Shown here piece by piece: positions 13,232 to 56,635 of a stretch of DNA of 64,000 bases (position 1 is the first letter of the stretch; each line of letters begins with the position of its first letter). Origin of the DNA: an uncultured Eubacteriales bacterium (GTDB lineage: Bacteria; Bacillota; Clostridia; Oscillospirales; CAG-272); NCBI GenBank assembly GCA_934433485.1, contig CAKRZR010000004.1, forward strand, positions 68,913 to 132,912. Direction: 5' to 3'. Both the position numbers and the translations under genes were made by a program. Under the pieces are notes generated by a model. That model was not told the DNA's origin, did not search any database, and saw only the letters and a list, made by a program, of their open reading frames with translations.

Positions 13232-14245
13232 ATGAAAAAGCACGCGAATATCCCCTTATTTATACCACACCTTGGCTGCCCGAATCGGTGTGTGTTCTGC
13301 AATCAGCACACGATCTCGGGCACCGTTTGTTTTCGGAAGGAGTCCGTATGTACACAGATTGAGACGGCGCTTGCGACCATTCCGCGGGACATGCCGTGTG
13401 AGATCGCGTTTTTCGGCGGCTCATTCACCGGCATTGACCGGGATTTGATGGTGTACCTGCTCAATCTCGCCACTTCCTACGTGTACGCAGGCAGAGTGCG
13501 GGCTATTCGTTTTTCCACCAGACCCGATTACATCACGCCGGAGATCGTCCGGATTCTCGCGCGTTACCCGATTGGCATGGCAGAGCTTGGCATTCAGAGT
13601 ATGTCCGACAGGGTGCTTGCCGCCTGCGACCGTGGTCATACCGCCGCGGACACCGTGACCGCCTGCGGCCTGCTGCGCGATGCCGGGATTCCTTATGGCG
13701 GACAGATGATGCTCGGATTGCCGGAATCCACCGCAGAGGATGAGAGAGAATGCGCCGCTGCCATCGCCGCGCTTGGCTGTACGGAGTCCAGGATCTATCC
13801 GACGATTGTGTTCCGCGATACGCCGCTTGCCGCGCTGTGGGAGGGTGGCATGTATCGTCCGCTGTCCCTCGAGGAAGCTGTGGAACGCGCTGCCGATGCG
13901 GAAGAAATATTCCACACAAATGGGGTACGTACCCTGCGAATCGGTCTGTGCGACAGCGAAAACCTGCATGGCGTCGATTGCCTCGCGGGACCCGTGCATC
14001 CGGCAATGGGGGAATTGGTCGCCAGCCGCATCTACCTGCACAGGATCGAGGACGCGTTGGAGCGTCTGCCGCATGGCATTCCGGAAAAAGTGACCGTTGT
14101 GGTGCCAAAAGGCGATATTTCCATGGTGGTCGGACAGAAAAAAGCGAATACACTGCGAATAAAAAATAAATATAATGTAAAATCCTTGCATTTCCTTGAA
14201 AATCCGGCTCTGATCCGGTATAATATACTATTAGGAAGCCTCTGA
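13232..14245 (+). CDS. Radical SAM protein (Elp3/TIGR01212-like) conserved between rnc and smc
   Basis: IPLFIPHLGCPNRCVFCNQ carries the CxxxCxxC cluster motif. Confidence 0.8.
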   Translation: MKKHANIPLFIPHLGCPNRCVFCNQHTISGTVCFRKESVCTQIETALATIPRDMPCEIAFFGGSFTGIDRDLMVYLLNLATSYVYAGRVRAIRFSTRPDYITPEIVRILARYPIGMAELGIQSMSDRVLAACDRGHTAADTVTACGLLRDAGIPYGGQMMLGLPESTAEDERECAAAIAALGCTESRIYPTIVFRDTPLAALWEGGMYRPLSLEEAVERAADAEEIFHTNGVRTLRIGLCDSENLHGVDCLAGPVHPAMGELVASRIYLHRIEDALERLPHGIPEKVTVVVPKGDISMVVGQKKANTLRIKNKYNVKSLHFLENPALIRYNILLGSL

Positions 14246-34435: not shown

Positions 34436-36595
34436 TTAATCGCACACGATCGCGTGCTGCAACATGTCGACAAGGGTCTCCACGGACAGATTCGTGCGGA
34501 TGTAGCGGCGATTGTCGAGCGGCAGGACAAAGCGTTCGTCTGCAATCGATAGAGCAACAGGCGGCTTATACAGCTCGTCGCGCACCTCAAAGAGCGCATC
34601 CGTGTAGGGAATGGTCAGTGTTCCCTCTCCATCCTCGTGCCAGCAGACCGCCCAGCTCTCACCATGACGCGTGAATACAAACGCGCGCAGAGGCGAGACG
34701 GTTTCGATTTGCCGATAGGGAACAAGCTCGTATTCCTTATCCTCATTTACAAGCAGCGTGTGCTCGGTGGCAAGCTCGCGGAGCATTTCCCGGTGCGCAT
34801 CAGTCAGCCAGCCTTTTGCGCGGACATCCTCCCAACGGCGCATGACCTCTAAAATATCGCCGGTACGCGGATGGGAACGGAACGCCGGAATGTTCGTCTG
34901 GATCGTCACCGGGCAGTCCCAGGCGGCAGCGCGGCTGGTACCGTACTCGTACATATCCGCCTGCGTCCGCTTGTCCCAGAACGCCCACCAGCCGAAATTC
35001 AGACGGGTGAAGTCCTCGCGCATCCGCGGTGCTTCTTCCGCCGGAAATTCCGCGATTTTTTCCTTGAAGATCTCTGGCGCAAATACGTCAAAGGCATTGC
35101 CGCCGGATAGAAAATGCCAGCTGAAATGAGCCTTCGCGGCGCCTTCACAGAAAATCGGCGGATTTTTGAGCTGCTTATACACCCGATACTGCGCGTTCGG
35201 CACATGGTATCCAAACGGTGCGTTGGTGCCCTCGGAACCGTCGAAATAGACAAACCGGAACCCTGTGTCAAACGCACGTGCGATCTTTGCGGCGACCTCA
35301 TCCTGCAAGTCGGAGTGCTGATCGAGGTATACGCTCGTTGCGCCAAATTCACTGACATCGAGCACACCGCCGATCTCCCCTGCCGGATGCGCCTTGACCG
35401 TCGTACCGTGATCGCCGCGTCTGCACCCGGTGAAGCGGTACGGAAGCTCCGTCGTGTAGCCCTCGTAGGAGATCAGCTCCGTACCGAACTTCAAAATCCG
35501 CGCTCCATTCGCCATCTCTGCGCCTTCCGGATTTTCCATGACGCAAATTTCGTCCGTGTTCTCCGCGCTAAGCGGTTTTGCCAACGTGAAGTGTTCTTTC
35601 AGATGGAGCCTGAAATCCGCTTCCGGCGTGACATAGCGGCTCTGCATCCCAATGTGGGTCTGCAAAAAGTGGAGTCCCGGCTTGATCCCGTTTTCCCGTA
35701 TGTGGCACAGGAGCTTTTCCACGTCTGCAGCACCATTCGGGTATTCGTCCCGATAGTCGTAATTGCCGCAGAGCCCATAGCCGCCCTGTTCCTTGAAAAA
35801 GCAGGTGTAATACAGGAGCATCAGCCGGAATCCGCCTTTTTTCGCGTAGGCAATGTGCTCGTCTACAGTGTCCGGCGTGACGTTGGAAGCCCAGTAAATC
35901 GACGCGTTGATGAACGGACTTCTCCGACTCTCCACGCCATGCGGCAGACCAAAATCCTTTTCGAGCAGATCCACACAGTCGAGATACTGTTCCGTCGGCG
36001 AGACGATGAGTGCGACGCCTGTGCCGCGCAATTTGACCTCCCGCAGTGCGTCCGCGTATAAAATTCGATAATCGACACGCCGTTCGGAATCGATGGATGC
36101 GTACGGCGAGGTCGAGAGCACGTTGACGGCACAGTGCGCATCCCAGCTCACGTTCAGCCATTCGCCGAAATGCGCGCGGTTTTTCACCGGAAGCTGCAGA
36201 ATGCGAAATTCCTCCACTGGCGGCAGCGTCATGTTGAGTCCGCCGTATTTCTCGTATGGTACGATGAAATCGTCGAGCGTGAATGCAATATAAGCGTCAG
36301 TGACGGCAAAACGAATGACTGCCTCATAGGGGATGATCTCAAAGCTCACGATGAGTTTGTCGCCTTCCGCGCGGAGCCGATTTGCCTGATAGGTCGTGCG
36401 TTTGTTGGGATGCGCCAATTTGACTTCGTTGTGGAACGGGCGATTTTGGGTGACAGAGCAGAGCGCGATGTTCTGTCCGGGTGCCGCCAGCTCCTCACCG
36501 GTTTCCTTACAGATGAGACTTTCCACAATCGCGTCGCCGCCGACCGTGAGTCGAAAACGGCTGTTTTCCAAAATGACAGAAGGGTATGCTTTCAT
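34436..36595 (-). CDS. Hypothetical 719-aa protein, possibly glycoside-hydrolase-like TIM barrel
   Basis: Long ORF with an AAAGGAT RBS and no firm family assignment; neighbours are carbohydrate-active genes. Confidence 0.55.
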   Translation of the reverse strand: MKAYPSVILENSRFRLTVGGDAIVESLICKETGEELAAPGQNIALCSVTQNRPFHNEVKLAHPNKRTTYQANRLRAEGDKLIVSFEIIPYEAVIRFAVTDAYIAFTLDDFIVPYEKYGGLNMTLPPVEEFRILQLPVKNRAHFGEWLNVSWDAHCAVNVLSTSPYASIDSERRVDYRILYADALREVKLRGTGVALIVSPTEQYLDCVDLLEKDFGLPHGVESRRSPFINASIYWASNVTPDTVDEHIAYAKKGGFRLMLLYYTCFFKEQGGYGLCGNYDYRDEYPNGAADVEKLLCHIRENGIKPGLHFLQTHIGMQSRYVTPEADFRLHLKEHFTLAKPLSAENTDEICVMENPEGAEMANGARILKFGTELISYEGYTTELPYRFTGCRRGDHGTTVKAHPAGEIGGVLDVSEFGATSVYLDQHSDLQDEVAAKIARAFDTGFRFVYFDGSEGTNAPFGYHVPNAQYRVYKQLKNPPIFCEGAAKAHFSWHFLSGGNAFDVFAPEIFKEKIAEFPAEEAPRMREDFTRLNFGWWAFWDKRTQADMYEYGTSRAAAWDCPVTIQTNIPAFRSHPRTGDILEVMRRWEDVRAKGWLTDAHREMLRELATEHTLLVNEDKEYELVPYRQIETVSPLRAFVFTRHGESWAVCWHEDGEGTLTIPYTDALFEVRDELYKPPVALSIADERFVLPLDNRRYIRTNLSVETLVDMLQHAIVCD

Positions 36596-38003: not shown

Positions 38004-38726
38004 TTATTCGAGTATATTGGAGGTGATGTAGTCAACACCCCAGGAGATCAGCCGTTTCGCGTCCTCCGGGTTGTCCACCGTCCAGCAGTTGACCTCAACG
38101 CCGCAATCGTGTAGCGCGCGTACCGCATCCTCGGTCAGCGCGGGATAAGCGATGTCAAGTCCCATCTTCCGGGCGGCAAGCATCTCCGGATATTCCGGTT
38201 TGTATTCGCCGGAGAGGAACTGGCACTCCTGCTCCGCACGAAGCTGTTTCACGAGGTCGAGATTGGCGATGTTGAACGCGATGAAGCAGGTGGCGTCGAG
38301 ATAGCCGTCAAAGATCGCGAGAATCTCCCGGATCTCGTCAAGCGTGAAGTTGCTCTTCAATTCCGGTACGCAGACCTTGCCGTAGTGCTCGCAGATTTTG
38401 CGGTACTCGCTGGGCAGGCAGAGCTTCAGCTCTGCGCGATCCGATCTGCCGTCGATATCCTTCAGGGTCAGCGCGCGCAGATCGGCAAGATTTGACTGCT
38501 CCATCACGAGATCCGTTTCGCAGATCCGTCCGCTTCTGCCGTCGTGATTGCAGATATACCGGTGATCAAGGGTGCGCCAGATGTCGGTTTCCACGCCGTA
38601 ATGGCTCCGGTTGCCTGCCGCGATGAATGCCGCAGCTGTATTTTCGGTTTCCAGTCCGCTGACGCCGCGGTGCGCCACGATTTTTGTGTTGCCGTGATCC
38701 GCGATTTTGATCGTATCCTTTTTCAT
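38004..38726 (-). CDS. Glycerophosphodiester phosphodiesterase (GDPD family)
   Basis: KIVAHRGVSGLETENTAAAF; the start at 38726 follows an AAAGGAAAG RBS. Confidence 0.8.
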   Translation of the reverse strand: MKKDTIKIADHGNTKIVAHRGVSGLETENTAAAFIAAGNRSHYGVETDIWRTLDHRYICNHDGRSGRICETDLVMEQSNLADLRALTLKDIDGRSDRAELKLCLPSEYRKICEHYGKVCVPELKSNFTLDEIREILAIFDGYLDATCFIAFNIANLDLVKQLRAEQECQFLSGEYKPEYPEMLAARKMGLDIAYPALTEDAVRALHDCGVEVNCWTVDNPEDAKRLISWGVDYITSNILE

Positions 38727-38784: not shown

Positions 38785-39834
38785 TTATTCCTTTGTATCC
38801 TGTAAATATGCGCAAAGGAGGGCAAATGTGTTCTTCACACCCTCGAGATGGGAGCGTTCATAGCCGTGCGATGCGTACACACCTGCACCGATCAGCGCCT
38901 GCCGCACATCAAAGCAGTGCACCGCCACCGTGCAGTCGGAGCTGTAATGCGGGTATACATCTACGGCATAGGACAGCGCGTTTTCTTTTGCCAGTGCAAT
39001 GAGGCGGCAGTTGATGTCGTAGTCGTACGGACCCGCGGAGTCGGCGGCGCAGATGGACACATCCTTTTCCGTGCATTCGAGTCCGTCGCCGACACAGCCC
39101 ATATCCACGCCGAGAATCTCGTTCACACCCTCCGGCATGATTCCGGCAGCCCCGTGCCCGATTTCCTCGTATACCGTGAAGTGCATGTACACCTTGCGCG
39201 GCAGCTCGATCTTTTCCTCCTTGATCCACTTGGCGACACCGAGTAAGATCGCGGCACTGAGCTTATCGTCGAGGAAGCGGCTCTTGATGTATCCAGATTC
39301 CGTGATGACCGTCTGGGGATCCACGCAGACATAGCAGCCGACCTCAATGCCGAGTGCCTTTGTTTCCTCTGCGGTTTTGACATCCTCATCCAGCACGACT
39401 TCCACATTGTCGAAATTGCGTGAGACCGTTTCCGAGGATGCATTTACATGCGCGGAGGCGTTTGCAAGCTGGATGTTGCCGGTGTATACTCTGCCGTCAC
39501 GCGTGTAGATGCGGACAACCTCCGTTTCCGCGTTGTTGGCGTTCAAACCACCGATGGCCTTGAGCAGCAGTCTGCCGTTGCTTTTGATCTGCCGTACCAT
39601 GGCACCGAGCGTGTCGATGTGCGCTGACAGCAGCAGACCTCCCTTTTCGCTGTTTTCCGCGCCGCCGATCTCACAGAATACGCCGCCCTTGTTCGTCAAC
39701 TTCGGCGCATAACCGAGCGCACGGAACTGTTCCATAGCGTAATCCGCCGCCTGACGGGTGAATCCGCTCGGGCTGTCCTTGGCAAGGATCCCGCGCAGTA
39801 CCTCGGTGACATAGGGCATATATGCTTCATACAT
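38785..39834 (-). CDS. M42-family metallo-aminopeptidase (FrvX/YpdE-like)
   Basis: LSAHIDTLGAMV.., EEIGHGAAG and a DxD metal site; the start at 39834 follows an AAGGAGA RBS. Confidence 0.78.
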   Translation of the reverse strand: MYEAYMPYVTEVLRGILAKDSPSGFTRQAADYAMEQFRALGYAPKLTNKGGVFCEIGGAENSEKGGLLLSAHIDTLGAMVRQIKSNGRLLLKAIGGLNANNAETEVVRIYTRDGRVYTGNIQLANASAHVNASSETVSRNFDNVEVVLDEDVKTAEETKALGIEVGCYVCVDPQTVITESGYIKSRFLDDKLSAAILLGVAKWIKEEKIELPRKVYMHFTVYEEIGHGAAGIMPEGVNEILGVDMGCVGDGLECTEKDVSICAADSAGPYDYDINCRLIALAKENALSYAVDVYPHYSSDCTVAVHCFDVRQALIGAGVYASHGYERSHLEGVKNTFALLCAYLQDTKE

Positions 39835-40029
39835 AAGAAAATCTCCTTTGCGATCTGAAATCTGATAAAAACACATGGGAAAGGTTCCCATATTCGTATT
39901 ATAGCACATTTCGTGCCGAATTTCCATGGTTTGCACTATATTTTTCCTGCTTGCTGCGTTTTTTCTGTGTGCCGGACATGTTTTTTTCTGTGGGATTTCG
40001 AAAAAAGCCTTTTCGTATTCTGAAAGGAC

Positions 40030-40058
40030 TTGATTCCACCGCGCACGCATGCTATAAT
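40030..40058 (+). promoter_or_regulatory. Sigma-A promoter TTGATT-17-TATAAT (TG extended)
   Basis: ttgatt 40030-40035; tgctataat 40050-40058. Confidence 0.45.
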
Positions 40059-40091
40059 GAAGAAAACTTCGTATCGCAAGGAGATGAAATC

Positions 40092-42203
40092 ATGGAATTT
40101 GCATGTGGCACAGGATATCACAGACCGGTACGGCTGTCAGAGGAGACGCGCGCGTTTGCCGATCGTTCCATGCACGGTATGTACGGTGACGACGCAATGA
40201 CGCACAGAACGCTTCCCATGGACGATGTGCCGGGATTTGCGGAAATGGACGGTATGGAACGGTATGCACATGCCGTCGATGCCATTGCACGCAACGCGCC
40301 GCTGCGTCTGGTTCCGGGTGAGAAGATCTGCGGCGCGGCGACCCTCGGTGGAGCGATTTCTCATATCGTACCGGTCACGTTCGGCGGCGAAAATGTGCTG
40401 TGGTCGGTGAGCCACGTGACGGTCGGGTTCGATCGCGTGCTGGAGATTGGCATGAACGGCATTCTGCATGACGTCGACGAAAACTGCCCCGGCACGATGA
40501 AGCGGTATCTGCGCCGGATGGTTTACGCCATGCGGATCTGGCACGCACGGTATCTGGCGGCGGAGCGGGACAACGATCCGGAAATCGCCGCGATGCTCCG
40601 TCGTGTCCCGTTTGATACACCGCGAACCTTCCGGGAAGCCGTGCAAAGTCTGTGGTTCACGTTCGCGTTCACAAGGCTGTGCGGCAACTGGTCGGGGATC
40701 GGCAGGATTGACAAAATGCTCGGACCGTATCTTGAAAAGGATTTGAAAAGCGGCGTAATCACGCTGGATGAAGCGCGTGAAGTCCTCGCCCACTTCTTCA
40801 TCAAAGGCTGCGAATGGATCCAGTCCGACACGCCGACCGGCACCGGGGATGCGCAGCATTACCAGAATATCGTTCTCTCCGGTACCGACCGTGACGGCCG
40901 CGATGTCACAAACGAGGTGACCTATCTCGTACTCGACATCGTGGAAGAACTGGCGATCAGCGATTATCCGATCACGGTGCGCCTGACGGACGAAACCGAC
41001 GAGCGGTTGTACCGGCGTATCGCGGAGGTCATGCGCTACGGCGGCGGGATTCTTGCCGTATACAACGAACCGCTCATCCTCCGTTCCCTCACCGCATTCG
41101 GCTACGATGCGACAGAGGCACGCGATTTTGCGAACGACGGCTGCTGGGAGGTGCAGATCCCCGGCAGGACGAATTTCACCTATATGCCGTTTGATGCGTA
41201 TACAATGCTCATGCGCGATACCCTCGGAATAGGCGGCGAACATAAGCGGTACGATACCTACGACGCGCTGTTTGCTGCGTATATGGACAGGCTCCGGAAG
41301 CACGTGGACGACACCTACGCCGGACTTGTCGATGGCATGTGCGAACCGGACGGGCAGGGCGGCTATCGGCTGAGGTGCTTCGGAATTCCGGCGACGCTCA
41401 TCTCCCTGTTTGAACGGGACTGTATTGCCGCGGGCCTTGATTATAACGCGGGCGGCTGTCGGTATACGGTCCGCTCTCCCCACATCGGCGGCGCACCGGA
41501 CGCTGGCAACAGCCTCTACGCGATCCGAAAAGCGGTATTTGAGGATCATCTCACGACCCTTGACCATCTTCTCGACGCGATCGAAAACGACTGGGACGGC
41601 GAAGAAGTCCTGCGCCAGCGGATTCTCACCGGCTATACCTATTACGGCAACGACAACGCGGAAGCGGACGCGGTGACGGCGGAAATCCTCGACCGGTTTG
41701 CCGATATGGTGCTCGCGCACAGGGGGGAATCGCCCATCCTCTATATCCCCGGCGTATCCACGTTCGGACGGCAGATCGATTGGCTCGGACAGCGTACCGC
41801 CTCTCCGTTCGGAATGAAAAAGGGCGCGATCCTCGCCGGAAACGCGTCTCCCACACCGGGTACCGATAAGGAAGGCGCGACCTCCATCATCGAATCCTAT
41901 TGCCATGCCGATCTCGGAAAGCAGGTATGCGGCGCGGCACTGGACGTAAAGCTCCATCCGAGCGCGACGCGAGGGGAAAACGGTCTCGCCGGCATCGTGG
42001 CGCTGCTCAAAGGCTTTGTCACCTTAGACGGTTATTTCCTCCAGCTTGATGTCATCGACGGTGAAGTGTTGCGGAAAGCGCAGGAGGATCCGGAAGCGTA
42101 CAAGACCTTATCCGTCCGCGTCTCCGGCTGGAACGCGCGTTTTGTCACTCTCAACCGCCAGTGGCAGGAGATGATCATCGAACGCACGGCGACGGGACTA
42201 TGA
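40092..42203 (+). CDS. Glycyl radical enzyme, PFL-like superfamily, unusually short (703 aa), substrate unknown
   Basis: The C-terminal glycine-radical motif LSVRVSGWNARFVTL has its Gly codon at 42127-42129. The mid-protein thiyl loop NDGCWEVQIPG (Cys codon 41142-41144) is analogous to GCVE in CutC, HypD and glycerol dehydratase. An AGGAGA RBS precedes the start. Confidence 0.75.
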   Translation: MEFACGTGYHRPVRLSEETRAFADRSMHGMYGDDAMTHRTLPMDDVPGFAEMDGMERYAHAVDAIARNAPLRLVPGEKICGAATLGGAISHIVPVTFGGENVLWSVSHVTVGFDRVLEIGMNGILHDVDENCPGTMKRYLRRMVYAMRIWHARYLAAERDNDPEIAAMLRRVPFDTPRTFREAVQSLWFTFAFTRLCGNWSGIGRIDKMLGPYLEKDLKSGVITLDEAREVLAHFFIKGCEWIQSDTPTGTGDAQHYQNIVLSGTDRDGRDVTNEVTYLVLDIVEELAISDYPITVRLTDETDERLYRRIAEVMRYGGGILAVYNEPLILRSLTAFGYDATEARDFANDGCWEVQIPGRTNFTYMPFDAYTMLMRDTLGIGGEHKRYDTYDALFAAYMDRLRKHVDDTYAGLVDGMCEPDGQGGYRLRCFGIPATLISLFERDCIAAGLDYNAGGCRYTVRSPHIGGAPDAGNSLYAIRKAVFEDHLTTLDHLLDAIENDWDGEEVLRQRILTGYTYYGNDNAEADAVTAEILDRFADMVLAHRGESPILYIPGVSTFGRQIDWLGQRTASPFGMKKGAILAGNASPTPGTDKEGATSIIESYCHADLGKQVCGAALDVKLHPSATRGENGLAGIVALLKGFVTLDGYFLQLDVIDGEVLRKAQEDPEAYKTLSVRVSGWNARFVTLNRQWQEMIIERTATGL

Positions 42204-42207
42204 CGGA

Positions 42208-42924
42208 GTGCCGGATATGACAGATATGTATGCGGAGCAGACAAAATCACTGCTGGAAACCACGTTGAACACACGGGATCTCGGTGTGTACCGGAGCGCG
42301 ATGACCGGGAAACGAATGCGGATATGGAGGATATTGCGCAGCGATGTGCAGAACTATCCCTCGGAAAACGATATCCGTTTGCTGACAGAGCGGAAAATCC
42401 GTACCATTATTGATATGCGCGGAGAAAAGGAAGTGCAGCGAAGGCCCAGTGGATTTGCGGACAGAGAAGGCTTTGTGTACTGCAATATTCCCATTGAGGA
42501 AGGCAGCGGGATACCGGGGTGTATCGATGCCGTCAGCGACAGCTACATAAAGATCGCGGAAAGCAGACGTATGGCGGATGTGTTCCGCGCCATTACCATG
42601 GCACCGGACGGTGTGATGTTCAACTGTACAGCGGGAAAGGATCGCACCGGCGTTGTCAGTGCCGTTCTCTTGGGTATATGCGGTGTATCGGATGCAGACA
42701 TTCTTGCCGATTATATGCTTACAAAGACATATAGTGCGGAACGGTTTGCACTGATCCACGAGAACTTTCCGGAGATCGATATGCGAATTGTGATTCCAAG
42801 CGAACGGTACATGGCAGAATTTATGGCGCGTCTTCGTGGAAAATACGGCGGCTTCCCGGAATACCTGACGGCGATCGGTGTGACGGCGGCGGAAAGATGC
42901 GCTATTATGGCTAAGCTGTTGTAA
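42208..42924 (+). CDS. Protein tyrosine/dual-specificity phosphatase-like (CX5R)
   Basis: FNCTAGKDRTGVVSAV matches the CX5R P-loop. Confidence 0.72.
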   Translation: MPDMTDMYAEQTKSLLETTLNTRDLGVYRSAMTGKRMRIWRILRSDVQNYPSENDIRLLTERKIRTIIDMRGEKEVQRRPSGFADREGFVYCNIPIEEGSGIPGCIDAVSDSYIKIAESRRMADVFRAITMAPDGVMFNCTAGKDRTGVVSAVLLGICGVSDADILADYMLTKTYSAERFALIHENFPEIDMRIVIPSERYMAEFMARLRGKYGGFPEYLTAIGVTAAERCAIMAKLL

Positions 42925-42994
42925 ATACGTTTGTACGCCGCAAATCCGTGCGAGCGGAAAATACAGTGGAATCGAAACCTGCACACAATAAAGG

Positions 42995-43025
42995 CAGCGG
43001 AGAAAATTTCCGCTGTTTTTTCTTG
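42995..43025 (+). terminator. Rho-independent terminator
   Basis: cagcggagaaaatttccgctg followed by ttttttc. Confidence 0.6.
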
Positions 43026-43083
43026 AAAATGTCCGATTCTCGTCCCCCGTGGTGTAATATAGGTAAGAAAGGCAGGTGACCTT

Positions 43084-43593
43084 ATGCGAACAGAAGCGGA
43101 AATGGAGGACGTAATGGCGCGTTACGGCGATTTTCTCTATCGGCTCGCGCTGACAATGGTTCATTCCGACGCGGATGCCTGTGACATGACAGCGGAAACC
43201 ATGGCGCAGTATCTCTTTTCCGACAAGGAGTTCGAGAGCGAGGCACACAGACGGGCGTGGCTTATCACAGTGCTGCGCAACCGGAGCCGGAATCTTCTAC
43301 GCTACCACAGACGGCACCAGACGGTCGAACTGTCGGACAATATTCCGCAGAGGCAGAGCGGCTACGGCAGGGAAGAGGCGGCAATCCTCGCCCGTATCCG
43401 ACCGCTGCCGGAGAAATACCGCACGATCCTCTATCTTTACTACGCGGAGGAGTACAGCATCCGGGAGATCGCGGAGATGCTGTCGGTCACACAATCCTGC
43501 GCGGAAAAACGACTCCAGCGGGCAAGAGAGAAATGCGCCGCGATCTGGAAAAATGAGGAGGGGAGCGAGAGGGTATGTATACACGAGAGTTGA
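43084..43593 (+). CDS. ECF-type RNA polymerase sigma factor
   Basis: Region 2 (RAWLITVLRNRSRNLLR) and region 4 (ILYLYYAEEYSIREIAEMLSVTQSCAEKRLQRAREK). Confidence 0.8.
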   Translation: MRTEAEMEDVMARYGDFLYRLALTMVHSDADACDMTAETMAQYLFSDKEFESEAHRRAWLITVLRNRSRNLLRYHRRHQTVELSDNIPQRQSGYGREEAAILARIRPLPEKYRTILYLYYAEEYSIREIAEMLSVTQSCAEKRLQRAREKCAAIWKNEEGSERVCIHES

Positions 43594-44858
43594 AAAAACT
43601 GCAAAATATCCGTATGCCGGAAGCGGACAAAGCGCGGATAGTGGAAATGCTTGTCCAAAAGCGCGGTACAAAGCATAGATACAATCGCAGACCTATGGCG
43701 ATCCTCGCGGCGGCATTGGCGTTCTGCGTCCTCTGTACCGCGTGCGGTGTGGCGGCGCAGTATTTCATCGAACGACGGAACCTGGCAGCGTTCTGGCTGT
43801 GGGAGAACGTGCGGGTACTGGACGCGCCGGTGGAGACGGGTTTCGGCAGCATCTACTACGCTTCCATCACCGATCACCGACTATTTGTCATGTGCCGGCT
43901 CGCGGATTTAACCGGTAACGGCGTCACCGCGGAGGAGAGCTTTACCGCCATCTTCCCTGACGGAACAGAGTATCCGCTCGTGGTCCAGAATCAGGCGTGG
44001 TCGGACGCCTACAGCTTCGACACCGCGACCGTGGACTGGTACGTACAGTATGGCGCCGCGGATGTTCCGACCGTGGATACGCTGACATTGCGCTACGACA
44101 AAACCGGAGAGGAAACAGTATTGTCCTTAGGAAAGCCGGATTCGGAGATCGCGGCATATCGTACAGATGGCGTACAGATCCGTGCCGCGCAGCTTGGTTC
44201 CGGTTGTCCCGCGGTAGCGGTCAGCATCCGTGTGGAGAAAAGCTTTGGCAAAGGCTGGTTGACGGAACCGGAAAAAATGTACTTTACGGTGGGGATCGGC
44301 GCGATAAACGCGGACGGCACAGTGTACCATACGGCTTGCGCCCTACGGCCAATCGGCGATGCGAAAAGTGAGACGTGCGTTATTGGACTGTTTGCAAGCG
44401 TATATTCCGTACCGGATACGCAGCTCAGCCATGCGGTGATGCAAATAGAAGAAATGTACATGAACTGTTATCTGCGGCCGGAGTATACCATGCGAAAGGC
44501 GACGCGGCTGGACGATCTCATCGGAGAGAAGATCCGACTGCCATTTGACAAATCCATAGAGATCACAGACTGTTGGCAGACGGAGGAGGGCGATGCGATC
44601 TGTCTCGAAAGCATAACCGATCCCTCGGAGGATTTTGAAAAGATACTTTGTATGCCGGATGGAACGGTCTGGTACAATTCCCGCGGAAAGCGCATAGAAG
44701 AAACCGGTGTATGGCGCGATTGCTTTACAAAGGGGAGTGGGAAAACAACAGAGCAGTATCAGACATATGCCGAACAGGCGAAAAAGAGCGGGAAAGTGCT
44801 GTTCTTTGTCTCGCGCGCAGGATTTCAGCTTGAAAATCTTGAAAAAATCGAGAAATAA
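43575..44858 (+). CDS. Putative anti-sigma factor: single-pass membrane protein with ~360-aa extracytoplasmic domain of unknown fold
   Basis: Overlaps the sigma gene by 19 nt (translational coupling), has a TM helix at about aa 42-62, and sits in the usual anti-sigma position. Confidence 0.6.
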   Translation: MYTRELKKLQNIRMPEADKARIVEMLVQKRGTKHRYNRRPMAILAAALAFCVLCTACGVAAQYFIERRNLAAFWLWENVRVLDAPVETGFGSIYYASITDHRLFVMCRLADLTGNGVTAEESFTAIFPDGTEYPLVVQNQAWSDAYSFDTATVDWYVQYGAADVPTVDTLTLRYDKTGEETVLSLGKPDSEIAAYRTDGVQIRAAQLGSGCPAVAVSIRVEKSFGKGWLTEPEKMYFTVGIGAINADGTVYHTACALRPIGDAKSETCVIGLFASVYSVPDTQLSHAVMQIEEMYMNCYLRPEYTMRKATRLDDLIGEKIRLPFDKSIEITDCWQTEEGDAICLESITDPSEDFEKILCMPDGTVWYNSRGKRIEETGVWRDCFTKGSGKTTEQYQTYAEQAKKSGKVLFFVSRAGFQLENLEKIEK

Positions 44859-44960: not shown

Positions 44961-45446
44961 ATGCCGCAGGACAAAAAGGCACGCAAGATCATCGCCGTCA
45001 ACCGGAAGGCGCGTCACGATTATTTTGTGGATGAAACGTACGAGGCAGGCATTTCTCTGTACGGCACCGAGGTCAAAAGCGTGCGTGCCGGACAGGTCAA
45101 TCTCAAGGATTCCTACTGTCAGGTAGAAAACGGAGAATTGTACGCCGTCGGATTCCGGATCAGTCCCTACGAAAAGGGAAACATCTTCAACCGCGATCCT
45201 CTGCGCCGTAAAAAGCTTCTGATGCACAAAAAGGAGATCCTGAAGCTCCAGCAGTACACACAGCGCGACAGCTATACGCTGGTGCCGCTTTCCCTCTATT
45301 TTTCCGGCGCGAACGTGAAAATGGAAGTCGGGCTGTGCAAAGGGAAAAAGCTGTGGGACAAGCGCGAATCGGATGCCAAAGCGGAAGCCGGACGCGAGAT
45401 CGAGCGGTACGCCAAGAGCAAAAATCGTTCGGATCGCGATGATTGA
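44961..45446 (+). CDS. smpB: SsrA-binding protein SmpB
   Basis: IAVNRKARHDYFVDETYEAGISLYGTEVKSVRAGQVNLKDSY; the start at 44961 follows an AGGAGGGGG RBS. Confidence 0.92.
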   Translation: MPQDKKARKIIAVNRKARHDYFVDETYEAGISLYGTEVKSVRAGQVNLKDSYCQVENGELYAVGFRISPYEKGNIFNRDPLRRKKLLMHKKEILKLQQYTQRDSYTLVPLSLYFSGANVKMEVGLCKGKKLWDKRESDAKAEAGREIERYAKSKNRSDRDD

Positions 45447-45466
45447 TCGTGGATAGGAGAGTGCAA

Positions 45467-45976
45467 ATGGATTTTGCCGCACTTTGTCAAAGACGCAAAA
45501 GCTGCCGTTCGTATGCTGCCACGCCGGTGACGGATGACGAATTGCAAGCCATCCTTCGTGCCGCCGTAGCCGCGCCGAGTGCCTGCAACATGCAGTCGTG
45601 GTATTTTTATGTGCTGCGCAGTCCGGAATCGCGGGAAAAGCTTACGGGACTCTGTGCCGATTGGGTGAAAAACGCGCCTGTTGTGATTGTGATCTGCACC
45701 AATGGCAGCGAGATCGTAGGCAGATTCGGCGATCGCGCAAGGGATCTGTTCATCTTACAGGATACGGCGCTTGCCGGTGAGAACATTATGCTACAGGCGG
45801 CGGATCTTGGACTTGGCAGCTGCTTCATCGGCGCGTTCAACGAGGACGGCGTGCGTGCGGCACTATCGATCCCGATGGACAAGCGACCTGTCGGATTGAT
45901 CCCAATCGGACATTCCACAGACAACACACCCAAGCGCGATAGAGCACCGATTGCGGAGAAATACGCGATTCTGTAA
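45467..45976 (+). CDS. Nitroreductase family protein
   Basis: The nitroreductase fold (..PSACNMQSW..). Confidence 0.75.
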   Translation: MDFAALCQRRKSCRSYAATPVTDDELQAILRAAVAAPSACNMQSWYFYVLRSPESREKLTGLCADWVKNAPVVIVICTNGSEIVGRFGDRARDLFILQDTALAGENIMLQAADLGLGSCFIGAFNEDGVRAALSIPMDKRPVGLIPIGHSTDNTPKRDRAPIAEKYAIL

Positions 45977-46049
45977 ACAAAACGCCGTGATATATCGGTT
46001 CGCGGCACAATATGTATTGTAAATAACCGAGCTTCGTCATCGGTTTTAC

Positions 46050-46424
46050 GGGGACGTAAAGGTTTCGACGGGGATTTTGCAGTACGATAAGCGGGTAGAG
46101 CCGGGGAATCTCTTAAAAAGCTCCAACCTTAAACTAAACGCTAACGACGATTTAGCACTGGCCGCCTAAGTGCGGTCTGTCCGCCGGGGGAATGCTGCGA
46201 CCCTCGGATGTCCCGTTTCGGGAAGTACCCCCTTTGGTACTGGCATCATGCAGCAGCGTCCGTGAACGGTGAGTTCGCATTTGTAACCGTCATGCACTAA
46301 ATTGCTACTGACCGCGGAAGCCTGACGACCGGCGTCTGCGGCAGGAAACACAAAAGACCGTCTGCACCCGGAGAAAGTCGTATGAATAGGTTTTCGGACA
46401 GGGGTTCGACTCCCCTCGTCTCCA
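46050..46424 (+). ncRNA. ssrA: tmRNA (transfer-messenger RNA), CCA not encoded
   Basis: The 5' end GGGGACGTAAAGGTTTCGACGGGGAT and the 3' end GGACAGGGGTTCGACTCCCCTCGTCTCCA form the acceptor stem GGGGACG/CGTCTCC with a T-arm. The tag ORF gct aac gac gat tta gca ctg gcc gcc taa (46140-46169) encodes ANDDLALAA. It lies immediately downstream of smpB. Confidence 0.92.
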
Positions 46425-55840: not shown

Positions 55841-56635
55841 TTACCGCAGACCGTGTCTTGCCAAAACCTCCATAACGGCGGCAGGATGGTTGGTTGTGAT
55901 CAGCTCACCGCCGTTTTCATATCCATGGTGAATCTGTTCCTCTGTGACCGCGTTTGCACCGACCCAGGGATGGATGCCCTTTGCGCGTACCTCATCGTAT
56001 TGCGCCTTGCTGCAAATCGGATCCTCATGCCAGGTGGAACGACCGTTTTCGTCATAGGATGCATTGAACATGCAGATGCAGTAGAGCACATCCCGCGCGG
56101 CAGTGTTGCCCATGATCTGGTAGGGATAATAGCCATGCAGGCGGTATTTGTGCCCATAGGTTTTGTCGATCCAAAGCAGCAGCTCGCCTTCAAAGCTGTT
56201 GATGAACAGACGGTCCGCAAGACCGTATTCTTCAAAAAGCGCAATGGTTTTGGACGCGCTCTCCAGGGCAAATGCTTCGCCTTTGTCGTGGATGTAATCC
56301 TTAAACTCAAAATTGAACTGCATTTTGTCGTCGCGCCGGGTCAGCTCCAGAAACTCGCGGAAGGTTGGAATACGTGTTCCTTGAAACTTGGCATCTGTCC
56401 GGATACCGAAATCGAGCCGTTTCAGCTCTGATAACGTCATATCCGATACAAGACCATGTCCGTCAGAGGTGCGATCCACGGTGGGATCGTGGATGACAAC
56501 GATTTCTCCGTCCTTGGTCATATGTAGATCCAGTTCGATCATGTCCACGCCGAGCGCATAGGCGCTTTCAAAGGCGGGCATGGTGTTTTCCGGGAATCCT
56601 TCCACATTCCCGCGGTGCGCAGCTACTTCCATCAT
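55841..56635 (-). CDS. Glycerophosphodiester phosphodiesterase (GDPD family)
   Basis: MMEVAAHRGNVEGFPENTMPAF..IELDLHMTKDGEIVVIHD; the start at 56635 follows an AAAGGTG RBS. Confidence 0.82.
   Translation of the reverse strand: MMEVAAHRGNVEGFPENTMPAFESAYALGVDMIELDLHMTKDGEIVVIHDPTVDRTSDGHGLVSDMTLSELKRLDFGIRTDAKFQGTRIPTFREFLELTRRDDKMQFNFEFKDYIHDKGEAFALESASKTIALFEEYGLADRLFINSFEGELLLWIDKTYGHKYRLHGYYPYQIMGNTAARDVLYCICMFNASYDENGRSTWHEDPICSKAQYDEVRAKGIHPWVGANAVTEEQIHHGYENGGELITTNHPAAVMEVLARHGLR

Follow-up and report, generated by a model that had tools for sequence, protein, structure and literature searches.

A compact family of glycyl radical enzymes in gut Clostridia, and a lineage in which the gene stands apart from any activase gene

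Introduction

Glycyl radical enzymes (GREs) catalyse demanding anaerobic reactions in the microbes of the gut, and the functions found for them on choline, hydroxyproline, isethionate and anhydro-sugars have repeatedly exposed pathways of relevance to the host. The present study concerns a GRE gene within a stretch of 64,000 nucleotides, here called the window, from an uncultured Eubacteriales bacterium (CAG-272 lineage of the Oscillospirales; assembly GCA_934433485.1, contig CAKRZR010000004.1, positions 68,913 to 132,912 of the forward strand). An earlier note had singled it out as an orphan, unusually short GRE with no activating enzyme nearby and with a protein tyrosine phosphatase gene beside it. 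The account that we favour, while leaving real room for doubt, is that the gene encodes a functional member of a compact GRE family, that the enzyme has eliminase or isomerase chemistry and is activated in trans, and that the phosphatase gene is a later and unlinked insertion.

The closest described systems are the B12-independent glycerol dehydratase (GDH) of Clostridium butyricum (PDB 1r8w) and 1,2-propanediol dehydratase (PD; 5i2a/5i2g, 9rco), which gave the best profile and Foldseek matches. The window GRE resembles them in its ten-stranded barrel and in having the Cys and Gly loops in register. The GDH residues C433, E435, H164 and Y339 are kept as C351, E353, H108 and Y257, and the GDH type of activase, with two ferredoxin-like Cys clusters, is also present in relatives of the window GRE. 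It differs from GDH and PD in being 22-27% identical to them and about 84 aa shorter, nearly all of this at the N-terminal side, and no microcompartment or downstream pathway genes lie within 10 kb of it. Where GDH has GCVE the window GRE reads GCWE, and H281, S282 and Y640 of GDH are replaced by S201, G202 and S556.

Three other groups of solved GREs invite comparison. The hydroxyproline-type dehydratases HypD (6vxc), HpyG (8id1) and HpzG (8iof) have the CxE motif in common with the window GRE, and 8id1 was the top phmmer match (1.8e-63). HypD was the second-best NCBIfam model, yet scored 260 bits where 1100 are required, and no proline-utilisation genes lie near the window GRE. The PflD/YbiW isomerases (8id0, 8yjo, 8id7) also have CxE, and substrates derived from sugars, like theirs, would be in keeping with the weak carbohydrate context of some related loci, but they are 21-25% identical, and with the PflD-type model the window GRE reached 232 bits where 1109 are called for. 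In Archaeoglobus fulgidus PFL2 (2f3o), whose structure is solved but whose function is debated (2026 superfamily review), the Gly loop reads RVAGW, and Trp thus follows the radical glycine, just as in the window GRE; unlike the latter, this protein is 776 aa long, has the Cys loop DGCVE, and comes from a hyperthermophilic archaeon.

Results and Discussion

The gene and its radical loops

The window gene is an intact GRE of the pyruvate formate-lyase (PFL)-like superfamily. It lies within a 750-aa open frame at 39951-42203 (+) and begins at an ATG at 40092, with an AGGAGA ribosome-binding site 7 nt 5' of it; the gene (40092..42203, +) runs to a stop codon ending at 42203 and specifies the 703 aa that the earlier note had stated. 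Position 40030, which that note had given as the start, is instead the first base of a promoter-like site (TTGATT-17 nt-TG-n-TATAAT; 40030..40058, +) found by consensus scan, a consensus match only, in which 10 of the 12 hexamer positions agree, the extended -10 TG is present, and the distance to the GRE ATG is 33 nt. Matches to the Pfam families PFL-like (2.2e-80) and Gly_radical (8.3e-19) were far beyond chance, and the latter (PF01228) places the glycyl radical domain at residues 582-685 (41835..42146, +), covering profile positions 2-106 of 106.

Both loops that carry the radical could be located exactly. The Cys loop FANDGCWEVQIPG (residues 346-358; 41127..41165, +) includes GCWE at residues 350-353, with Cys351 at nt 41142-41144, just where it had been placed before, and Glu353 at nt 41148-41150; it aligns with the GCVE of GDH, HpyG, CutC and PflD. 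The Gly loop LSVRVSGWNARFVTL (residues 673-687; 42108..42152, +) includes RVSGW at residues 676-680 and aligns with the RVAGY or RVAGW of solved GREs; its radical-site Gly679 is nt 42126-42128, one base from the 42127-42129 previously assigned. In a phmmer comparison with all PDB chains, GCWE fell on GCVE, and RVSGW on RVAGY or RVAGW, in HpyG (8id1), CutC, GDH (1r8w), A. fulgidus PFL2 and PflD. The assignment of a glycyl-radical C-terminus and of a GCVE-like loop was therefore sound, and both motifs match the catalytic residues of known GREs in position.

The further marks of the superfamily are also present. The fingerprint RVxG[FWY] of the PFL-like superfamily (IPR004184), as defined in PMC11528403, is found as RVSGW inside the glycyl radical domain, and a mid-protein cysteine, Cys351, falls on the thiyl-radical cysteine of GDH, Cys433. 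An AlphaFold2 model (pLDDT 91.9) shows the ten-stranded alpha/beta barrel that is common to PFL and ribonucleotide reductase (RNR). An aminoacyl radical enzyme (AARE), in which Ala, Ser or Thr stands in for the radical Gly, was considered and ruled out, Gly679 being invariant in 117 homologues.

A discrete family of compact enzymes

A homologue search over 5.8 billion protein clusters yielded over 2,400 matches. The best 120 were 52-94% identical, nearly all 700-725 aa long and nearly all aligned from residue 1; the exceptions in length were three partial sequences, which are shorter, and a single one of 742 aa. An exhaustive phmmer scan covering 1.84 billion representatives gave about 18 full-length representatives at 492-761 bits, followed by a drop to about 310 bits and then a continuum of other GREs. 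Relatives are encoded in 370 GTDB species genomes, and the family inhabits gut, rumen and digester Clostridia, in human, ruminant, bird and digester microbiomes. Its hallmarks are a Cys loop FANDGCWE and a Gly loop RVSGW[NS]ARF; FANDGCWE and RVSGW are invariant across the 117 homologues, as are R676, G679 and W680.

The family is distinct from the enzymes for which curated models exist, as had been suspected. Identity of the window GRE to every solved GRE is 20-27%. The NCBIfam matches came in the order PFL2-3 subfamily, HypD, PflD, HpsG and CutC, and the best of them, PFL2-3, reached 287 bits against a cut-off of 678. Besides HypD and the PflD type, already mentioned, all equivalog models scored below their cut-offs: HpsG and HpfG (231 and 197, each against 1000), CutC (219 against 1050), IAD (179 against 1100), HPAD (161 against 1150) and PFL (76 against 994). 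Members listed at NCBI are labelled 'hypothetical protein' or 'pyruvate formate lyase family protein'. Full-text literature searching found no description of the compact family and no paper pairing 'GCWE' with 'glycyl radical', and searching on orphan GREs, glycerophosphodiester and Oscillospiraceae found nothing relevant. The 2026 superfamily review has no such enzyme among those it covers, and stresses that whole clades are still uncharacterised. What has been recognised is a discrete, uncharacterised family of GREs of about 700-725 aa, that is, an addition to a known kind of enzyme and not a new kind of system. Being well delimited, spread over so many species genomes and present in a cultured host, Fumia xinanensis NSJ-33, that has the full gene module, it offers a tractable target for the discovery of function.

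These scores also bear on the simplest alternative, which is that the window GRE is an orthologue of a characterised enzyme, whether glycerol or propanediol dehydratase, HypD, CutC, PflD/YbiW or PFL. The best profile match was indeed to GDH (4.7e-97) and the best Foldseek match to PD. However, the shortfall from every equivalog cut-off, the low identity to each solved GRE, the replacement of H281, S282 and Y640 of GDH, and a single Cys in place of the Cys-Cys pair of PFL all stand against orthology, which is extremely improbable. To these may be added that His108 probably occupies the place of Asp216 in CutC.

The length of the protein is a property of the family. Solved PFL-like GREs have 759-1150 aa, and the earlier statement that the window GRE is shorter than characterised GREs holds against these, but not against the class III RNRs; lengths of 690-750 aa are common among uncharacterised GRE relatives. 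Truncation at the N-terminus, or a wrong start, was looked for by alignment and rejected: homologues align from residue 1 and share the conserved residues R11, R14, L15 and R20. Compared with GDH, positions 54-88 of the family profile fall on GDH 47-81 and position 96 on GDH 152, and the pairwise offset grows from 56 aa at His108 to 80 aa at residue 161, reaching 84 aa by the C-terminus. A family-wide internal deletion of about 60 aa is accordingly placed by profile-to-PDB alignment at residues ~88-96 (40353..40379, +), between the N-terminal 'EKICGAATLG' strand and the beta-strand bearing His108, a position that is approximate, profile positions being different from residue numbers. As judged from these alignments, the shortness of the family is due to this deletion after the first N-terminal strand, together with about 20 aa fewer in the following helices; the deletion being family-wide, the window GRE is short but not truncated.

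The NDGCWE Cys loop also occurs in many distant, uncharacterised GREs. These are longer, at 740-790 aa, and their Gly loops have the form RMGGW, RVGGW or RMGGL, with AYF next in sequence. GCWE was present in 62 of the 150 best 50%-identity representatives, and other neighbours in GRE sequence space had the Gly loop RVWGF. This distribution suggests that the compact family is part of a larger, unexplored NDGCWE group of GREs. Two representatives of the family have long N-terminal extensions, P0246 (964 aa) and P0244 (875 aa), and in P0246 a Laminin_G_3 (ConA-like lectin/glucanase) domain is N-terminal to the GRE, either as a real fusion or as an artefact of gene calling.

Active site and probable reaction class

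The residues expected of a 1,2-eliminase have counterparts in the window GRE. The codon for His108 (40413..40415, +) encodes the residue that falls on GDH His164, which is proposed to act as general acid on the leaving hydroxyl, in both pairwise and profile alignments (SVSHVTVGFDRVLEIGMNGI aligned with GVGHVSVDYGKVLRVGFNGI), and the histidine is invariant in 65 and in 117 homologues. Tyr257 (codon 40860..40862, +) lies in the invariant motif GDAQHYQN and falls on GDH Tyr339, and C351, E353 and G679, likewise invariant, fall on C433, E435 and the radical glycine of GDH. The CxE feature of eliminases and isomerases thus appears to be present as C351-W352-E353, on C-V-E, and His108 would be the strand beta-1 general acid that an eliminase needs for an oxygen leaving group.

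The 2026 superfamily review gives the glutamate of CxE the role of deprotonating the substrate hydroxyl or of hydrogen-bonding to it, and has His164 of glycerol dehydratase protonate the leaving hydroxyl. From these roles, the window GRE is inferred to act on a small hydroxylated compound, by radical 1,2-elimination (dehydration) or by an isomerisation of related type. The family profile scored 329 bits with GDH, 325 with HpyG, 321 with HypD and 318 with PD, and lower with members of other classes (arylacetate decarboxylase 235, MASS 187, HPAD 164, BSS 144), which places the family closer to the eliminases and isomerases than to other classes of GRE. The Cys loop, G-C-W-E, has a single cysteine in place of the Cys-Cys pair of the pyruvate formate-lyase class, and chemistry of the PFL type is excluded by this. 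The most likely assignment, which draws on alignment and on a predicted structure, is to a 1,2-eliminase or dehydratase type of GRE.

Within this class the substrate is predicted not to be glycerol, since the residues by which GDH holds the third hydroxyl have been replaced and the family has invariant polar or basic residues of its own, D253, Q255, H256, R560 and R683.

If the assignment is correct, catalysis would begin with a radical-SAM activase taking a hydrogen atom from Gly679, and the glycyl radical would then generate a thiyl radical on Cys351. This would take a hydrogen atom from the carbinol carbon of a small hydroxylated substrate; Glu353 would deprotonate the substrate hydroxyl while His108 protonated the vicinal oxygen leaving group, and the product radical would regain a hydrogen from Cys351. 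The chemistry would be that of a 1,2-eliminase (dehydratase) or isomerase of the glycerol dehydratase or HypD type.

Several observations weigh against the account that we favour. The reaction class is read from an alignment at 20-27% identity and an unrelaxed predicted model, and the CxE motif occurs in GRE decarboxylases too. Of the glycerol-binding residues of GDH, H281/S282 have become S201/G202 and Y640 has become S556, and Asp447 has no clear counterpart. The PFL2-3 / glycerol dehydratase subfamily model, TIGR01774, stops at 287 bits where 678 are needed, so the window GRE is described here as working like the glycerol dehydratase and eliminase class and is not filed in that curated subfamily. 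As set out below, no activase was found for the source organism in the 84 kb that were covered of one 137.6-kb scaffold, the case for activation in trans is the indirect one of purifying selection, and no downstream pathway enzyme or transporter that would fix the substrate appeared in the gene context of 80 loci.

Loss of the linked activase in one clade

Gene order was compared across 80 related loci from GTDB species genomes, which were searched for activases by tblastn with E. coli PflA and with a hidden Markov model (HMM) built from 44 activases of the family. Outside the window's clade, the activase gene lay directly 3' of the GRE gene in 51 of the 60 sampled loci. These linked activases are of about 300 aa and have CxxxCxxC and two ferredoxin-type Cys clusters, and the two that were tested scored 295-304 bits with TIGR02494 (cut-off 174). 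In 22 of the activase-linked loci a divergent gene for an AraC-family regulator lay 5' of the GRE, and the cultured F. xinanensis NSJ-33 (L052) has the AraC / GRE / activase module intact. When the activase of the sister-clade locus L029 was used as query, 2,160 homologues were recovered, and the two that were looked up both adjoin a GRE.

The window belongs to a clade that departs from this arrangement. The clade consists of the window's own scaffold (L001) and 21 related species genomes, and no activase was found within 10 kb in its loci (L001-L018 and L021-L023, with GREs at least 58% identical). In a neighbour-joining distance tree the activase-less loci form one clade nested within the activase-linked family, with L029 and L034 as sisters, so that being an orphan is a derived trait of the clade. 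The earlier description of an orphan GRE is thus correct for this lineage but does not extend to the family. Nine other, scattered loci were also without an activase, and some of those contigs end soon after the GRE.

In the source organism, six-frame translations of the window and of 10-kb flanks on either side contained no match to the 44-activase HMM, and the flanks contained no radical SAM gene. The operon lacks an activase, as had been claimed, and none stands within 10 kb beyond either end of the window. The only radical SAM gene of the window had been described as Elp3-like, and this was borne out: the open reading frame (ORF) at 13232-14245 (+) is the only one of at least 150 aa near 13.2 kb with CxxxCxxC, and has weak matches to ELP3 and MnmL/YtqA-type tRNA-modification proteins, well below cut-offs, and no match to TIGR02494. 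It stands between an RNase III gene and a 1,213-aa ORF that we take, from its sequence, to be smc. As a candidate activase this gene was rejected, since it matches no GRE-activase model, and it is probably a housekeeping protein.

The GRE of L039 (JAFQQU010000228.1) is followed, one gene later, by a partial GRE-like ORF of 321 aa, which may be a duplication or an assembly artefact; this locus has no activase.

Selection, and the case for activation in trans

The GRE of the activase-less clade has been strongly conserved. The ratio of nonsynonymous to synonymous substitution (dN/dS) of the window GRE was 0.05-0.08 against its three closest relatives (L002-L004) and about 0.14 at greater distance, and over the divergence of the clade, down to 58-68% identity, full length and both radical loops are unchanged. 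Only three fixed differences are specific to the clade (positions 5, 139 and 370), none of which is in the glycyl radical domain. An adaptation of the Gly loop to some other activase was therefore considered and set aside, there being no clade-specific change at that place. Judged by these substitution patterns, the GRE of the activase-less clade is still in use, and the Gly loop, having stayed as it was, suggests continued recognition by an activase of the same kind as before. Low dN/dS and invariant loops, despite the absence of a nearby activase, make it likely that the enzyme is activated in trans, through an activase whose gene lies in another part of the genome.

A precedent for such activation exists in E. 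coli, where the PFL activase, PFL-AE, activates TdcE, which has the same Gly-loop sequence as the activase's own partner, although GRE activases are considered to be largely partner-specific (PMC13450708). Like the window GRE, TdcE has no activase encoded beside its gene; TdcE, for its part, is a formate lyase and shares its genome with its paralogue PflB.

The partner specificity of activases, together with the lack of any activase within 10 kb in the 21 related clade loci and in 84 kb of the window's scaffold, could also be taken to mean that the GRE is an evolutionary relic, no longer activatable after its activase was lost, and either non-functional or serving some radical-independent role. 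The low dN/dS, the retention of full length and of both loops across the clade, the mere three clade-specific substitutions, and the intact promoter-like and ribosome-binding sites speak against decay, and we consider a relic very unlikely. With activation in trans, the clade would amount to a natural experiment on activase specificity, having kept its GRE under strong selection long after losing the linked activase. In outline, the GRE of the window's lineage would have lost its activase and AraC neighbours, and it now stands between smpB and a glycerophosphodiester phosphodiesterase (GDPD) gene, which in some members is accompanied by a gene for an M42 peptidase.

Clues to the substrate

Gene context gave little guidance on the substrate, in agreement with the earlier note. 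When the 991 ORFs of the 80 loci were clustered, only the activase and the AraC regulator recurred. Pfam was run on 130 immediate neighbours in activase-linked loci, among which AraC accounted for 17 proteins, and SASA and CE4 were found twice each. No shell-protein family of bacterial microcompartments (BMC) was among the Pfam hits within 10 kb or in the top families of the 130 neighbours, so the locus does not have the mark of a glycyl radical enzyme microcompartment (GRM).

Across the activase-less clade one neighbour alone has been conserved along with the GRE. This is the gene for a cytoplasmic GDPD (38004..38726, -; PF03009, 1.1e-21), which tblastn located upstream in 16 of the 22 loci of the clade, counting L001. 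The GRE might be coupled to this divergent GDPD, acting on sn-glycerol 3-phosphate or on the alcohol released by glycerophosphodiester hydrolysis; sn-glycerol 3-phosphate is the phosphate analogue of dihydroxypropanesulfonate, the substrate of HpfG/HpsG. The pair is kept in these loci while the genes on either side vary, a distant Caldicoprobacterales locus (L020) has a GDPD orthologue, which scored 331 bits with the clade HMM, adjoining its GRE-activase pair, and the invariant R560 and R683 occur where GDH has no arginine. However, GDPD is absent from the other activase-linked loci, and in six loci an M42 peptidase gene separates GDPD from the GRE. Conservation within one clade can be inherited synteny, and a rough estimate gives one expected chance co-occurrence among about 57 loci. 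His108, moreover, probably occupies the position of the sulfonate-binding Arg/Gln pair of IslA and HpsG, which would tell against such coupling. The linkage is suggestive and fits inherited synteny plus one chance event; actual coupling to GDPD is given a slim chance.

The M42 aminopeptidase gene (38785..39837, -; PF05343, 1.1e-65) is divergent from the GRE, and lies between GDPD and GRE only in L001-L004, L007 and L008. A second GDPD gene at 55841-56635 (-) is about 28% identical to the GRE-adjacent one over a local match of 100 residues, and the genome therefore has at least two distinct glycerophosphodiesterases.

Another candidate substrate is a metabolite of carbohydrate origin, for instance a deoxy- or anhydro-sugar, a sugar alcohol or a sugar phosphate, by analogy with the PflD/YbiW isomerases or with propanediol dehydratase in the use of fucose and rhamnose. 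This would be a rival on the substrate only, being compatible with an eliminase or isomerase mechanism. Loci L086 and L087 have the GRE-activase pair clustered with GH101-like and GH36/GH31 proteins; SIS, PfkB and NAGLU genes lie near the GRE in L091-L094, SASA esterase genes in L001, L002, L038 and L063, CE4 deacetylase genes in L032, L036 and L063, and a GDSL-like esterase gene in L088. The lectin/glucanase-like domain of P0246 and the invariant polar GDAQHYQN, at the position of a substrate-contacting strand, point the same way. Yet the hosts are glycan degraders with carbohydrate-active enzyme (CAZyme) genes throughout their genomes, and these hints are raw co-occurrences; among the 130 immediate neighbours only AraC recurs, and the P0246 fusion could be a gene-calling artefact. 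A carbohydrate substrate is accordingly regarded as unlikely, though plausible enough to be kept in mind.

The most operon-like context of the family was that of L086 (251-12897), identical in L087, with a GRE 52% identical to that of the window and with identical catalytic loops. Its genes are co-directional, in the order GH101-like/DUF5696, URO-D-like, GRE, activase, unknown protein, six-hairpin-glycosidase-like and GH36/GH31, and the unknown and six-hairpin-glycosidase-like proteins are both large and without clear domains.

A bolder possibility, which we hold to be doubtful, is that the compact NDGCWE family catalyses an undescribed GRE reaction and that, in the window's lineage, the enzyme is served by a shared activase from elsewhere in the genome. 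The reaction might be C-O-P cleavage or dehydration of a glycerophosphodiester-derived metabolite, for example sn-glycerol 3-phosphate, or the ring-opening or dehydration of a glycan-derived sugar. If it were true, the promiscuity of activases would be broader than is currently assumed.

The downstream phosphatase and other neighbours

The gene downstream of the GRE, described before as a CX5R phosphatase, is one: it encodes a Y_phosphatase3 protein of 235 aa (42217..42924, +; 238 aa from a GTG at 42208) that matched PF13350 at 2.9e-44, with 152 bits against a gathering threshold of 22.2, and its P-loop, CTAGKDR, has the CX5R form. Against the PDB the best match was 8dhi (6e-15), with a weak match to M. 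tuberculosis PtpB (2.7e-5). The gene begins 4-13 nt past the GRE stop on the same strand, a scan found no terminator-like site between them, and the two are probably co-transcribed. This arrangement would suit a functional pair, in which the substrate is phosphorylated or the GRE is regulated by phosphorylation. However, the phosphatase was found only in L001, L002 and L004 and was absent from all other family loci, and the whole of 42204-44507 is missing in L003, so that a functional pair deserves next to no credence.

The missing segment is a lineage-specific cassette of 2.3 kb (42204..44507, +), delimited by blastn. It comprises the phosphatase gene, a gene of the sigma-70 family and the greater part of a 427-aa gene without a Pfam match. 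L003, with a GRE 92% identical to the window GRE, lacks the cassette, L002 has it and L004 has part of it; in L005 and L008, smpB comes almost immediately after the GRE. The phosphatase gene thus belongs to a recent insertion that separates the GRE from the smpB/tmRNA genes, and is not a conserved partner; the co-location previously noted is real at this locus, and is restricted to the three closest loci. Between close relatives, the cassette is an indel polymorphism.

Beyond the cassette lie smpB (44961-45446), a nitroreductase-family gene and the transfer-messenger RNA (tmRNA) gene (46050-46424), together at 44961..46424 (+), recognised by Pfam SmpB, ARAGORN and synteny. ARAGORN gave the tag peptide of the tmRNA as ANDDLALAA. 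The smpB-nitroreductase-tmRNA segment is the ancestral downstream flank of the GRE in the activase-less clade, and the GRE sits in a housekeeping neighbourhood, not in a catabolic island. On the other side of the GRE, a 719-aa protein encoded at 34436-36595 (-) had no significant Pfam match; its gene adjoins that of the SASA esterase, and the protein is 88% conserved in L002.

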